Shown piece by piece: positions 24,594-34,653 of a stretch of 40,414 nt of DNA (positions are counted from its first letter, which is position 1; each line of letters begins with the position of its first letter). The stretch is taken from IMG/VR virus record IMGVR_UViG_2917398303_000004, positions 1 to 40,414 of that record, one strand, 5' to 3'. This DNA is from a virus (taxonomy: Duplodnaviria; Heunggongvirae; Uroviricota; Caudoviricetes). A program made the position numbers and the translations under genes. Under the pieces are notes generated by a model that saw only the letters and a list, made by a program, of their open reading frames with translations, did not search any database and was not told where the DNA came from.

Positions 24594-25201
24594 GCAATCA
24601 CCGCTTTCGCTTTGGTGTAACGAACACACCTGTCGTTAATGCCGTTCTGACCGCCATTGATAATCTGAGTGATGCGCGCCAGGTCATCGGTGTACTTCAG
24701 ACAACCTTTGGAGACGTAGAACCATGCAGCAGAACGTGCAGCATTAATGTCTTTCTCCAGCAGTTCAGGGTTAGTAACCAGGTCAAGCTTCAGACCATTG
24801 CCGCAATCGCGGTAATTAGTGAGACCGGTAATCTGAATTAACCCGCGTCCACGGTATTTCCAGCCATAACCAGCAGCTTTGTTACCAAGACGGTTGCTGT
24901 ATACCAGGTTTGCGATAGCTTCCTGACTTGCTGGCTTACCGTTCGCACGCCCAAGCATTGATGCCTGATAGTTCGTTGCCCGGCGTCCAAACGTAGTCAG
25001 TAATGCAGCAGGCGTGTAGTTGAAGTTCTCCACCAGCGCAGAGAATCCCGCTGATTCATGGCCTGCCTGAGCAATGAACATCGCCTTATCTTTTGGCTCA
25101 GTGATGCCAAACTCTTTCATTGCATCCGTAATCGGCTGAAACCAGCGCGCAGCTAACCCGGCGCTAATAACAGCCGCCTGTTGAAATTGTGATTGGTTCA
25201 T
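24590..25201 (-). CDS. Endolysin, glycoside hydrolase family 19 (chitinase-like lysozyme)
   Basis: AQAGHESAGF and YRGRGLIQITG motifs of GH19 lysozymes. Confidence 0.85.
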   Translation of the reverse strand: MNQSQFQQAAVISAGLAARWFQPITDAMKEFGITEPKDKAMFIAQAGHESAGFSALVENFNYTPAALLTTFGRRATNYQASMLGRANGKPASQEAIANLVYSNRLGNKAAGYGWKYRGRGLIQITGLTNYRDCGNGLKLDLVTNPELLEKDINAARSAAWFYVSKGCLKYTDDLARITQIINGGQNGINDRCVRYTKAKAVIA

Positions 25202-25458
25202 TAGTGCCTCAGAGCATCAATAAGACGCGCCACGTTTCCCCGAGCCCAAAGCACGGCGGCGCATATCAGGATGTTAACGATGACCACCAGCCAGTGTGAT
25301 TCCAGGTATAGGCCGAACAGATAGCGGAACGGGATGCTGGCATAAACCAGCACCGTGAAATAAGCGAGAAGAGAAACTATCGGGCGATGTCAGGCACCGC
25401 CACGCTGGTAAAACATCAGAGTAAGAACGATGATCGCGCTAATGCCCGCATTGATCAT
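25201..25458 (-). pseudogene. Holin-like small membrane protein interrupted by in-frame TGA (25390-25392)
   Basis: Own translation: MINAGISAIIVLTLMFYQRGGA-stop-HRPIVSLLAYFTVLVYASIPFRYLFGLYLESHWLVVIVNILICAAVLWARGNVARLIDALRH; TAATG overlap with endolysin start. Confidence 0.35.
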
Positions 25459-25468
25459 CGCTGAAGGA

Positions 25469-25864
25469 TCACTTGTTACCATTGCCGGTCCCTCCACCAC
25501 GTAAACGCGAGAGAATTCCAAACAGGCTACCCAAATCCTGGCTGTTGACGAAAGTCAACAGCTTAATAGCAATTGCGGCAACGATTACCGCGCCCAGCGC
25601 ATCAAGTGGTCTGTCGCTATACCCCGTCCATTTGGAGAAGAAGGAGCCAAGCAGTGGCGCGCCAATAACGCCGAAGATGAATGAGGTGATGAAGTAGCCA
25701 GTCAGCTTAAGGCGGCTGATATTAACCGCCGTAGCGACGTAGAATACCGCGCCAGCGAATGCGCCAAACACAACACCATAATCAATACCGGTTGCGATAC
25801 CAAAAACACTGGCTCCCATAAGGCCACCAGCGGCAACCGTAGTGCCAGAAACAGGATCGGACAT
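25469..25864 (-). CDS. Multi-TM membrane protein, putative holin
   Basis: 131 aa, 3-4 predicted hydrophobic helices, first gene of lysis block. Confidence 0.45.
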   Translation of the reverse strand: MSDPVSGTTVAAGGLMGASVFGIATGIDYGVVFGAFAGAVFYVATAVNISRLKLTGYFITSFIFGVIGAPLLGSFFSKWTGYSDRPLDALGAVIVAAIAIKLLTFVNSQDLGSLFGILSRLRGGGTGNGNK

Positions 25865-25948
25865 TTAGCCCCCTCTTATTGCCGTGAGTCCTCTCAAAAC
25901 GAGGGGAATAAAAAAGGCCGCCTTCAGGCAGCCTTCTAGTGAAAATAA

Positions 25949-26626
25949 TTATTGTCTCAATTTAACTCGCTTCCATTCTGTTTTTAAGCATCTTTGACTC
26001 GATTTAATATATAGTTCTTTTAGTCTTCGGTATGCTTTTTCCACCTCTGAACCATCTACATAAAACATACGGATATCTTCGTTCTCGAACATAAAGATCA
26101 TGTTTTTCTGACACGTCAGTATAGCTTTTGATGTCCATTCATGGGGATTTAGCATTAGCTGTATATTGGTAGCCAACTCAAGTATACGATGCTCAGAATC
26201 AATCACCACATCAAAGTATTCGTCTGCTCTCTCATTCGTGCCATTGCCCCATTTAGCACCTTCTCTTTCAGCAGAGTGCATTCGACGAAAACGCTTATGC
26301 TTTTCACAGCTCATAATGAACTCTGAGCAGTAACTTCGAAGGGTATTAATCCATTGTTGTCTATTTGTAGACAACACCTGAGAATCAAAAGCCATTTCAG
26401 CTAAATGACGTTGATTATCTCTGTCTGTTGCGGCTAAATCATCATTCTTTTTGATTGTGTACCATGCCACAGCAGTTGGCAGTGCTGCACCTACAAAAGC
26501 AGCAAGTACAGATCCAAAAATGGTATCCCAACCAATTCCGGTATCAACAATAATCTCAGGTATTTTTGTAACTGCTAATCCAGCATCTACAGTGAAAAGT
26601 GGATAAGGTATCCCTTGCCAAGCCAT
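25949..26626 (-). CDS. Hypothetical membrane-anchored protein (AT-rich moron between Q/tR' and lysis genes)
   Basis: 225 aa, single N-terminal TM helix, low GC relative to flanks; no recognisable domain. Confidence 0.55.
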   Translation of the reverse strand: MAWQGIPYPLFTVDAGLAVTKIPEIIVDTGIGWDTIFGSVLAAFVGAALPTAVAWYTIKKNDDLAATDRDNQRHLAEMAFDSQVLSTNRQQWINTLRSYCSEFIMSCEKHKRFRRMHSAEREGAKWGNGTNERADEYFDVVIDSEHRILELATNIQLMLNPHEWTSKAILTCQKNMIFMFENEDIRMFYVDGSEVEKAYRRLKELYIKSSQRCLKTEWKRVKLRQ

Positions 26627-26661
26627 ATAACCCCCCTAAACATTTTGTGGGGGGATAATAG

Positions 26662-26684
26662 CAAAAAACCCGCACGTTGGCGGG
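26662..26684 (-). terminator. tR'-like rho-independent terminator downstream of Q (CCCGCCAACGTGCGGG + T6 on minus strand)
   Basis: 5-bp GC stem, 6-nt loop, T-run; about 50 nt downstream of candidate pR'. Confidence 0.6.
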
Positions 26685-26733
26685 TTCTTAATGTTTGTTG
26701 CTCTGTTCGCTTTTGCGTCCCGAGCGTAACATA

Positions 26734-26762
26734 ATTTAAGCACCTTCTGGCTCACATTGCAA
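26734..26762 (-). promoter_or_regulatory. Candidate late promoter pR' (TTGCAA-17-TTAAAT) overlapping Q stop codon
   Basis: Sigma70-like -35/-10 with 17-bp spacer on minus strand, directly upstream of the tR'-like terminator. Confidence 0.4.
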
Positions 26763-27356
26763 CTTAAATCTGCTGCTATTTGTGCCGAATGCATCACACA
26801 TTGGTGCATAAAGCATGAATTCTGCCAAACTTAGCCAAGAATCAATTCTGCGGCGGCAGGTCATGTAGCACCACTCTGGATGACGCTTTTGAAGTTGCTC
26901 TGCCATGAAGCGTTTGCTCTTGCGATAGCGGTATCGGTCCAGTAGCACATCAAACAATCCGTTATGACCATTTGAGATCAGCACAGCCGCGATAACGCCA
27001 TCAATGCATACACCCTCATCATCTGAGCAGAACGCAATGCCTGTCTTGTTTTTGCCATCGAGAATTTCACGGAAGAACGCTTCGAGTTCTGGTTTCGACA
27101 GCCCTGATTTCTTCATGCGACGTAAAGCGTCATTGATGGCTGTCTTGGTGATTTTCCCGGAGGCCAACAACTGGTTAAACATATTGCCGCCTGAGCCGCC
27201 ACCTATGAATGACCAGCGGCCCCACATACGTAGTTTGCCCTGAATCCATACACTTTCCAGTGTACGCAGTCGTGCCATTTCCCCGGATTTGCCAACTTCG
27301 GAAGGATTAATCATTTTGCGTCTCCACTTACGCCAGTACACCGGTTGCCAGCGCAT
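26736..27356 (-). CDS. Late-gene antiterminator Q-like protein
   Basis: Position immediately upstream of pR'/tR' and lysis genes; size and Cys/His content compatible with Q family; no motif confirmed. Confidence 0.5.
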   Translation of the reverse strand: MRWQPVYWRKWRRKMINPSEVGKSGEMARLRTLESVWIQGKLRMWGRWSFIGGGSGGNMFNQLLASGKITKTAINDALRRMKKSGLSKPELEAFFREILDGKNKTGIAFCSDDEGVCIDGVIAAVLISNGHNGLFDVLLDRYRYRKSKRFMAEQLQKRHPEWCYMTCRRRIDSWLSLAEFMLYAPMCDAFGTNSSRFKLQCEPEGA

Positions 27357-34372: not shown

Positions 34373-34496
34373 TGTGTTGTAGCTCAATAGGTAGAGCGCC
34401 TCCTGAAGGAGGAGTTGAGCACTAACCAAGGATCATAACCCAGTTATCTCATGCGGCTGGCCAGACGTTATCCGGGTTCGAGTCCCGGCAGCACAA
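34373..34496 (+). ncRNA. tRNA-like element with canonical acceptor, D-arm and T-arm but an aberrant 74-nt central region
   Basis: Acceptor TGTGTTG/CAGCACA, D-arm GCTC-AATAGGTA-GAGC, T-arm CCGGG-TTCGAGT-CCCGG; no canonical anticodon arm could be folded by eye. Confidence 0.4.
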
Positions 34497-34574: not shown

Positions 34575-34653
34575 GCGGCATTAGCTCAGTTGGATAGAGC
34601 AACGGCCTTCTAAGCCGTGTGGGTCGCAGGTTCGAATCCTGCATGCTGCACCA
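34575..34653 (+). tRNA. tRNA-Arg (anticodon UCU) with encoded CCA
   Basis: Hand-folded cloverleaf: 7-bp acceptor, D-arm, anticodon stem ACGGC/GCCGT with loop CTTCTAA, 7-nt variable loop, T-arm GCAGG-TTCGAAT-CCTGC; resembles argU-type tRNA. Confidence 0.8.

Follow-up and report, generated by a model that had tools for sequence, protein, structure and literature searches.

A compact, probable phage-21-type late control unit and a moron with a putative read-through-specific hairpin over its ribosome-binding site in a Caudoviricetes genome

The DNA described here, further called the window, is the entire 40,414-nucleotide (nt) stretch of the viral record IMGVR_UViG_2917398303_000004 (positions 1-40,414; Caudoviricetes). 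On its minus strand, to which the coordinates of the elements refer, a gene for a Q-like antiterminator is followed by a candidate late promoter (pR'), an intrinsic terminator (tR'), an open reading frame (ORF) of 225 amino acids (aa) with the properties of a moron, a second intrinsic terminator and the holin leader (Table 1). Between tR' and the moron, two complementary runs, C6 and G6, can form a hairpin that covers the Shine-Dalgarno (SD) sequence of the moron. A preliminary description of this DNA had interpreted the arrangement as a pR'-tR' unit in which expression of the moron is coupled to Q-dependent read-through. The comparisons reported below favor, by a small margin over even chances in our estimate, two stacked modules: a phage-21-type late unit and an autonomous moron that would be insulated by a hairpin specific to read-through RNA.

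Table 1. Features of the Q/moron/holin region of the window. Promoters, start sites and the pause element are predictions.
Feature	Position	Strand	Details
Q-like antiterminator gene; DUF1133 protein, distant Q21-family member	26736..27356	-	206-aa longest ORF; stop TAA 26738-26736
pR' -35 hexamer, TTGCAA	26757..26762	-	inside 3' end of Q gene; 17-nt spacer to the -10 candidate
QBE-like site, GTGAGCC	26749..26755	-	in the -35/-10 spacer; core TGAGCC matches 5/6 of the phage-21 QBE core TGAGCA
Candidate pR' -10, TTAAAT (or TAAATT one base later)	26734..26739	-	overlaps the Q stop TAA 26738-26736
Putative sigma-dependent pause element, TGt-TACGCT, extended -10-like	26723..26731	-	about -1 to +5; hexamer TACGCT 26728-26723
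Conserved leader block, CGGGACG..AAAGCGAAC(A/T)GAGCA	26699..26722	-	24 nt; form in the window CGGGACGCAAAAGCGAACAGAGCA
Intrinsic terminator tR', AACCCGC / CAACGT / GCGGGTT + T6	26663..26686	-	starts 50 nt after the -10 hexamer
Predicted extended -10 promoter of the moron, TGcTATTAT	26655..26663	-	TG at -15/-14; hexamer TATTAT 26660-26655; abuts the T-run of tR'
Hairpin 5' arm, CCCCCC	26649..26654	-	positions -6 to -1 of the predicted moron promoter (discriminator)
Hairpin loop	26637..26648	-	A26648 is the predicted moron +1, 7 nt past the -10; C at -1, A at +1
Hairpin 3' arm, GGGGGG	26631..26636	-	SD of the 225-aa gene; TTAT spacer, 4 nt before the ATG at 26626
Moron ORF	25949..26626	-	225 aa; ATG at 26626; begins MAWQGIP
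Second intrinsic terminator, GAAGGCTGCC-tgaa-GGCGGCC + T6	25910..25936	-	between moron and holin; seen in fold
Conserved holin leader	25865..25906	-	CCCCTC (25906-25901) pairs with GAGGGGG (25875-25869), the SD of Phage_holin_8; ATG 25864

The case presented here rests on comparison with relatives because the promoter match and the C6/G6 stem are weak when taken alone. The data comprise sequence features, conservation, covariation and folding energies. For the late control unit, 105 loci encoding relatives of the window Q protein were collected from genomes, Escherichia coli assemblies and viral contigs, and these gave 69 distinct downstream regions. For the moron, homologs of the 225-aa protein together with a DNA pattern scan for MAWxG(I/V)P starts gave 33 distinct leaders. 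Individual loci are indicated by L numbers where they need to be told apart. A megablast search against phage records found no close match for the Q/moron region, the holin alone being matched, and Rfam at its gathering threshold returned nothing in this region, its sole matches in the whole window being tRNA near 34.4-34.6 kb.

The protein encoded by the Q-like gene matches DUF1133 (1e-96) and PF06530 (9.5e-9; 35.7 bits with a cut-off of 26) in Pfam, as well as PHROG 753, 'anti-termination protein Q-like', at 1e-70. It also aligns to the phage-21 Q structures (PDB 6P18 and 6JNX) with an E-value of about 1e-5 (1.2e-5), which indicates distant homology, and this alignment takes in the N-terminal WxxGxLxxWGxW motif and the recognition-helix motif TCRR. 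PF06530 has been equated with the Q21 family (Yin 2022; PMC9388147), and DUF1133 was previously flagged as a Q antiterminator by the use of HHpred in a genomics paper (PMC8136144). By these sequence relationships, the product of the gene upstream of the late promoter is a distant Q21-family antiterminator. This would provide a function for a domain of unknown function, with DUF1133 being a Q21-like antiterminator. The true start of the Q gene is probably at 27314, since the Pfam and PHROG profiles set in at Met15 and PGAP, too, starts the Q homologs there (192 aa). In its 206-aa form the ORF shares 29 nt (27328-27356) with the end of the DUF968/HNH-like gene that precedes it. Downstream of Q, the minus strand encodes a Phage_holin_8 holin, a second holin-family protein, a GH19 endolysin and spanin-like ORFs, followed by structural genes.

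The sequence TTGCAA-17-TTAAAT, which had been proposed as a promoter overlapping the Q stop codon, is present at the positions given in Table 1 and is embedded in a conserved context. In all 69 distinct homologous regions the -35 hexamer is TTGCAA, TTGAAA or TTGAAT, with an invariant TTG, and the -10 candidate is kept as TTAAAT, TTGAAT or TTAACT at the fixed spacing of 17 nt. From this we infer a pR' start at about 26729-26727; the transcript start near 26727 that was suggested earlier agrees within about 2 nt with the start predicted by homology. The spacer between the two hexamers contains a sequence that resembles the Q-binding element (QBE) of phage 21, for which the Q21 subsite is TGAGCA (PMC6606751). 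The gap from TGAGCC to TACGCT is exactly 20 nt and identical in phage 21, as counted from both sequences. A TAnGCT hexamer occurs 5 nt past the -10 hexamer in every sub-lineage, usually preceded by TGn, and it is kept even in loci with otherwise unrelated leaders (L005, L010, L023 and L009). We suggest that TACGCT is a sigma-dependent pause element (SDPE) of the same sequence class as the phage-21 element TAAGCT. The possibility that TGnTAnGCT is the true -10 of pR' was considered and provisionally set aside; the pause-element assignment is preferred because TGnTAnGCT matches the mapped SDPE of phage 21 and preserves the QBE spacing of that phage. The GGG that directly follows the pause hexamer in the window recalls the AACGAT-GGG sequence of lambda.

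The spacer sequence varies together with the recognition helix of Q. A helix with TCRRR is paired with (T/C)GAGC in the spacer in 64 of 64 distinct loci, and a helix with TCE[ST]R is paired with TTGCGC(G) in six of six, which makes 70 of 70 for both classes together. The leader block further downstream occurs with both helix types and so cross-classifies, for which reason the spacer, and not the leader, looks like the specificity element. The two helix/spacer classes could represent a natural Q/QBE recognition code, and TCRRR/TGAGCC and TCE[ST]R/TTGCGCG would form a natural specificity pair for studying how Q proteins read DNA. The spacer of the TCE[ST]R class (L002, L006-L009 and L022) reads (G/A/C)TTGCGCGG, compared with GTGAGCC for TCRRR, and the helix residues are encoded by Q codons of about 157-164.

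The leader block itself hardly varies among loci whose Q proteins share 64-97% identity. Its sequence allows a hairpin, but a structured RNA was rejected because six of the eight pairs never vary and there are zero double changes. The sequence AAC(A/T)GAGCAACA in the downstream part was considered as a second QBE and was also discarded, being located ahead of the paused polymerase and not tracking the Q helix type. The 3' part of the block resembles a phage-21 QBE subsite plus flank, AAATGAGCAACA.

The strong intrinsic terminator with a T6 tract that had been reported about 50 nt after the promoter was found again, and folding of the 131-nt region with RNAfold placed both the tR' and the C6/G6 hairpins in the minimum free energy structure (-48 kcal/mol, z -4.4). 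An intrinsic terminator lies 39-92 nt past the Q stop codon in 69 of the 69 distinct regions. The loops of these terminators vary and several stems are unrelated to each other, for example GCCCAAGG/CCTTGGGC and GCCGC/GCGGC.

Several points weigh against assigning a late promoter to this sequence. The -10 hexamer is poor, without an A at position 2 (-11). The match of TTGCAA-17-TTAAAT to consensus is 8/12, which alone is at chance level, since 364 sites in the window match equally well or better (4/6 + 4/6). The consensus promoter/terminator scan listed neither pR' nor the moron promoter described below, and it reported tR' solely as its plus-strand mirror. A second QBE subsite is not recognizable in the window, while Q21 uses two, arranged as a direct repeat. 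Furthermore, common descent is a confounder of the helix/spacer covariation, since both lie in the Q gene, whose 3' end makes up the spacer. Taking these points into account, the pR'-tR' reading of the preliminary description holds, and it can be sharpened to the phage-21 type in view of the Q21-family Q protein, the pause element and the QBE-like core at phage-21 spacing. The segment 26762-26663 would thus comprise pR' with a QBE-like site, a pause element and tR', and would give a leader RNA of about 65 nt. Judged by its sequence, the late switch is ordinary in kind, a compact phage-21-type unit.

The gene that follows tR' differs from its surroundings. Its GC content is 39.1%, compared with 49-53% in the neighboring genes, and the related phages L001, L004 and L055 lack it, having the second terminator and the holin leader directly after tR'. 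Relatives that are devoid of cargo keep tR' and the second terminator in tandem, and a terminator is found after the cargo in 12 of the 13 cassettes listed, with differing stems. Morons have been defined as inserts with their own promoter and terminator that are expressed from a repressed prophage (PMC3594210). The 225-aa gene appears to be a textbook moron between two terminators, since its own, predicted, promoter, its own terminator, its odd GC content and its presence/absence polymorphism fit the published definition. The product is predicted to have a disordered N-terminus, a single transmembrane helix and a C-terminal four-helix bundle (AlphaFold2 (AF2) pLDDT 78). It gave zero family matches in Pfam, NCBIfam or PADLOC, and a Foldseek comparison of the AF2 model with the PDB returned nothing better than an E-value of 0.1, the fold being a generic four-helix bundle. 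The N-terminal 74 aa match phrog_18859 and are common to cargo proteins with different tails. A match to KwaA is weak (E 0.0067) and was obtained with the cargo of a relative, not with the window protein. A role of the moron product in exclusion or defense is a guess.

The predicted moron promoter is an extended -10 element that directly abuts the T-run of tR'. The pattern TGnTAnnnT is found at this position in 15 of the 69 regions, which are exactly those with a forward ORF 31-38 nt downstream, and in 0 of the 54 others. When 12 divergent leaders were aligned with MAFFT, unguided, a T, the TG, the TA and the final T of the hexamer were invariant and the bases between them varied; the invariant columns correspond to the bases that matter in an extended -10. 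The pattern is present in 32 of the 33 distinct leaders, 18-40 nt before the ATG and in several cases behind lambda-type pR' units, and the more specific form TGnTA[TA]nAT has only six sites in the entire window. The +1 of the moron is predicted from spacing and purine preference only, with a purine at +6 to +9 past the hexamer in the 32 leaders. The C6 run fills the discriminator of the promoter, which puts the predicted start just past this arm of the hairpin. Against a promoter function it can be noted that a -35 hexamer is missing, that the consensus scan is silent on this element, and that the motif could owe some of its conservation to the pairing of part of the -10 with the AUG region.

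The C6 and G6 runs, separated by 12 nt, were recognized in the preliminary description as capable of occluding the only SD of the 225-aa gene. This pairing exists, with GGGGGG as the only SD-like sequence ahead of the moron ATG, and it recurs with different arms in 32 leaders. The calculated energy of the hairpin is -11.9 kcal/mol, and a longer context adds pairing of GCUAU with AUGGC. It is not a terminator because the stem is not followed by a U-tract. Each of the 32 leaders has a 5' arm that starts inside the -10 hexamer or a few nt past it and finishes at or before the predicted start. The arms themselves include C5-6/G5-6, CTCCTT/AAGGAG and ACCTC/GAGGT, and further ATTACCTT/AAGGTAAT, AGATTTCTTT/GAAAGAAATCT, TATGATGCCTC/GGAGGCATTATG and TTATTCCCTTTT/AAAAGGGAATAA, each 5' arm matching its own SD.

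The effect of the 5' arm was quantified as the energy needed to open the segment from SD to AUG, with shuffling of the entire -10 plus arm segment as control; a plain shuffle of the arm is uninformative for homopolymer arms. In the window leader, opening costs 13.6 kcal/mol for the read-through RNA, compared with 2.6 kcal/mol for the RNA with its own start. The mean values for the 32 leaders are 11.8 kcal/mol in the read-through RNA, 4.5 kcal/mol in the RNA with the predicted own start, and 6.3 kcal/mol in read-through RNA with the -10 plus arm segment shuffled. The read-through value exceeds 95% of the leader's own shuffles in 26 of the 32 cases (Wilcoxon p 5e-10 and 2e-9). When arms were swapped between leaders, the cognate arm was the best or nearly the best in 10 of 14. 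These results have to be weighed against a number of others. The C6/G6 hairpin of the window is not significant when compared with dinucleotide shuffles (z -0.87; 38 of 200 fold as well, the runs being kept). A longer RNA generally buries sites more than a truncated RNA, which the shuffle control addresses in part, and the kinship of the leaders causes the Wilcoxon p-values to overstate independence. Two family members have no convincing hairpin: L029, which has neither a Q gene nor tR' upstream, and L025, in which Q and the cargo are separated by a reverse-strand gene. The diversity of the arm sequences appears to be a stronger argument than the p-values. On the strength of this comparison, the SD-occluding hairpin is real and conserved by covariation.

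A hairpin of this kind would also fit a simpler explanation, in which the 225-aa gene is the first gene of the late operon, has no separate promoter and depends on Q, with the C6/G6 hairpin as a constitutive attenuator that keeps the level of a membrane protein low, comparable to the structure ahead of lambda S or to the holin leader of the window. In favor of this, the only SD is covered by a stable hairpin, and the promoter scan found no moron promoter. In the holin leader 700 nt downstream, CCCCTC pairs analogously with GAGGGGG, and nothing resembling a promoter precedes this leader; since it occludes an SD in a similar way without any promoter, simple attenuation is viable and this counts against a promoter-linked role. 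Moreover, Stx genes in the same position are expressed largely by late read-through (PMC8065619). We nevertheless consider constitutive attenuation rather unlikely. It does not account for the invariance of the TG, TA and final T of TGnTAnnnT amid varying neighbors, or for the restriction of this motif to regions with forward cargo (15/15 as compared with 0/54). An internal gene of the late operon would need no terminator of its own, as is found after 12 of the 13 listed cassettes, and the low GC content of the moron also argues against it. Finally, the 5' arm keeps its position relative to the -10 and not to the SD: the loops range from 3 to about 14 nt, and the arm always starts no more than a few nt from the hexamer.

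The slot that harbors the moron is variable. In E. coli relatives it is occupied by a gene of 190 aa or by a gene on the reverse strand, or has no annotation, and the homology of the window to E. coli relatives with different cargo stops at about 26655, the last base of the -10 hexamer. The T-run, TGnTAnnAT and the arm might thus mainly constitute a recombination junction for cargo exchange, in which the SD pairing is a by-product of C-rich and G-rich composition, devoid of a regulatory role. The point at which homology ends, the highly variable set of cargo genes and the occurrence of the same terminator/-10 junction behind unrelated lambda-type pR' units would all be in agreement with this. 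Such a junction would leave unexplained that unrelated arm sequences each match their own SD and that the invariant positions coincide exactly with those of an extended -10, and we regard it as improbable that the conserved segment is mainly a junction. Roles as junction and as promoter are not mutually exclusive. The same cargo family, with the terminator/extended -10 junction, was found behind the lambda-type pause element AACGATGGG in L120, L132, L137, L138, L161, L173, L176 and L178. Since the same junction is present behind lambda-type late promoters, the cassette moves between phages with unrelated Q systems. A different cargo of 79 aa (MAITLHH...), with TGgTAAAAT about 30 nt before the ATG, occupies the same slot in L052, L063, L065, L087, L099 and L108. 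Its C-rich segment falls inside the predicted transcript, so not every moron in this slot has the insulated layout.

A further option is that the hairpin influences the fate of the RNA, as a 5' stabilizer, as a processing site for RNase III or RNase E, or as a transcriptional pause or attenuator. A stable stem directly past a terminator and on the 5' side of a coding region could serve such functions, and phage late transcripts often contain processing hairpins. The stems of 5-12 bp are shorter than typical RNase III substrates, and the only property that stays the same over the 32 leaders is the coincidence of the 3' arm with the SD, often together with the AUG, which points to translation initiation. 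An effect on RNA fate is, in our judgment, highly improbable.

In the explanation that we favor, promoter activity, both transcript starts, pausing, the action of Q and the effect on translation are predictions that connect the features described above. The pR' promoter would be fired by sigma-70 RNA polymerase and would be constitutive in the lysogen. An early pause would result from sigma region 2 re-binding to the -10-like TACGCT. Without Q, transcription would stop at tR' and leave only the short leader transcript. When the DUF1133 Q protein is present, it would bind TGAGCC in the spacer and load on the paused complex to give a terminator-resistant polymerase. This modified polymerase would cross tR', the moron and the second terminator, and would proceed into the lysis and morphogenesis genes. 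The moron would be transcribed independently from its own extended -10, with no need of a -35, starting at A26648 and ending at the terminator at 25936-25910.

The two transcripts would differ in whether they can be translated into the moron product. RNA made from the moron's own promoter in the lysogen would begin with ACAAAAUGUUUAGGGGGG.., would not contain the C6 arm and would be translatable. RNA from pR', produced either by leakage through the terminator or by Q antitermination, would carry the C6 arm and would have its ribosome-binding site (RBS) folded into the hairpin. Because the 5' arm is located upstream of the predicted moron start, the hairpin would silence the read-through RNA and spare the moron's own transcript, and because only pR'-derived RNA carries the arm, it would insulate the moron from late transcription. 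The moron's own terminator would also shield the cell from transcription entering the holin gene. After induction, a possibly harmful or pointless membrane protein would not be made in proportion to late transcription. The coupling of moron expression to Q-dependent read-through, as put forward in the preliminary description, is probably the inverse of what occurs: the predicted promoter at 26663-26655 and the second terminator had been overlooked, and the 5' arm is upstream of the predicted start. The hairpin probably provides protection from outside transcription of the type found in IS10 and sigG, and not Q-coupled expression.

More tentatively, and with a little less than even confidence, the observations can be extended to a widespread cassette family at the Q/holin junction of enterobacterial lambdoid phages. 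Its members would possess a promoter-embedded anti-RBS, in which the -10 hexamer and discriminator of the cassette promoter supply the strand complementary to the SD and AUG. Their genes would be translated only from their own lysogenic transcript and remain silent on the much more abundant Q-antiterminated late transcript. If this is correct, the element is a portable insulation device by which genes can be inserted in the phage operon with the strongest transcription and yet escape lytic expression. Accessory genes, possibly for defense or exclusion, could then reside inside the late operon and still be restricted to lysogeny. It would also explain why the tR'-holin slot is a hot spot for cargo exchange, and it would represent a compact, transferable design that makes a gene blind to incoming transcription. 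For annotation, it would imply that genes in the tR'-holin slot are not necessarily 'late genes' as far as their protein output is concerned.

Some other features of the window can be mentioned. The holin leader is nearly identical in all related loci examined and has an inner hairpin between its arms; it is reminiscent of the sdi structure of lambda. The second holin-family gene (Phage_holin_3_7; 25201-25482, minus strand; 93 aa in relatives) has an in-frame stop at codon 31 (25392-25390), where the window reads GGA*HRP and the E. coli locus L011 reads GGARHRP. The prophage copy may be lysis-impaired through this stop. Two stretches of the plus strand in the prophage early region, 34373-34496 and 34575-34653, gave tRNA matches, one being a tRNA-Arg (anticodon TCT) called by both Rfam and ARAGORN. 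A second tRNA match of 124 nt and 45.9 bits, obtained with Rfam alone, is located about 80 nt upstream of the tRNA-Arg and may be interrupted or degenerate.

Comparison with characterized systems shows which parts of the locus are familiar. In the phage 21 record (OL657228) the Q stop codon is followed by a -35 (TTGACA), the QBE (ATTGAGCA + AATGAGCA), a -10, the mapped start, the SDPE TAAGCTG and a terminator, with the SDPE immediately after the mapped start and the terminator ending about 50 nt past the start. The window resembles this system in having a homologous Q protein (PF06530; 6P18, 6JNX) in which the TCRR motif is kept, the same predicted order of -35, QBE in the spacer, -10, start and pause hexamer TA(A/C)GCT with the 20-nt gap between QBE and pause element, and a terminator within about 50-65 nt of the start. 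Differences are that the window Q is a DUF1133 protein, distant (E about 1e-5) and about 45 aa longer, and that its promoter overlaps the end of the Q gene, whereas that of phage 21 follows the Q gene. The window also has one recognizable QBE subsite, a TG before the pause hexamer and a 24-nt leader block without counterpart in phage 21, and tR' is followed by a moron, whereas tRNA genes follow tR' in phage 21.

The pR'-tR' unit of lambda, which produces the 6S RNA, has properties that are also predicted for the window: its late promoter is constitutive, a sigma-dependent pause element lies at about +1 to +6 just ahead of a GGG, and polymerase reads through tR' when modified by Q. In the lambda sdi structure, a stem of a C-run and a G-run (CCCC-TTATT-GGGG) includes the SD of the first downstream gene, as the stem in the window does. 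Dual-start control of the sdi type was nonetheless rejected for the moron: sdi sets the two-start ratio of a holin, and the 225-aa gene has a single start Met and a product that is not a holin. The leader RNA is about 194 nt in lambda and about 65 nt in the window, and lambda Q belongs to a protein family unrelated to the window Q (PMC9388147). Stx phages also have an accessory gene between tR' and holin; stx genes are transcribed by Q-modified polymerase after induction (PMC8065619). Stx2 phages rely mainly on late read-through for expression, whereas the design found in the window is predicted to block translation of read-through RNA.

Insulation of the RBS from a host operon has, to our knowledge, not been described for morons. 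In other respects the 225-aa gene is similar to morons of the HK97 gene 15 type, with its own promoter (predicted here) and terminator, a deviating GC content, presence/absence polymorphism and a membrane protein as product (PMC3594210). The burial of the RBS exclusively in RNA that started upstream, combined with an own promoter that starts inside or beyond the 5' arm (a predicted start in case of the window), is shared with IS10, IS50 and sigG. The transposase gene of IS10 is reportedly protected by the same fold-back mechanism, said to have been described by Davis, Simons and Kleckner in 1985, and the IS50 transposase gene has the same protection. In Bacillus subtilis, fold-back of the RBS protects sigG from outside transcription (PMC5942855). 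The window element differs from these examples in being a prophage moron in a Q-antiterminated late operon, in using the promoter's own discriminator as 5' arm (in the family often the -10 hexamer), and in having a design that is common to a cassette family with different arm sequences. The promoter-embedded anti-RBS of the moron would therefore be a variant of a known principle, for which the comparative support is good.

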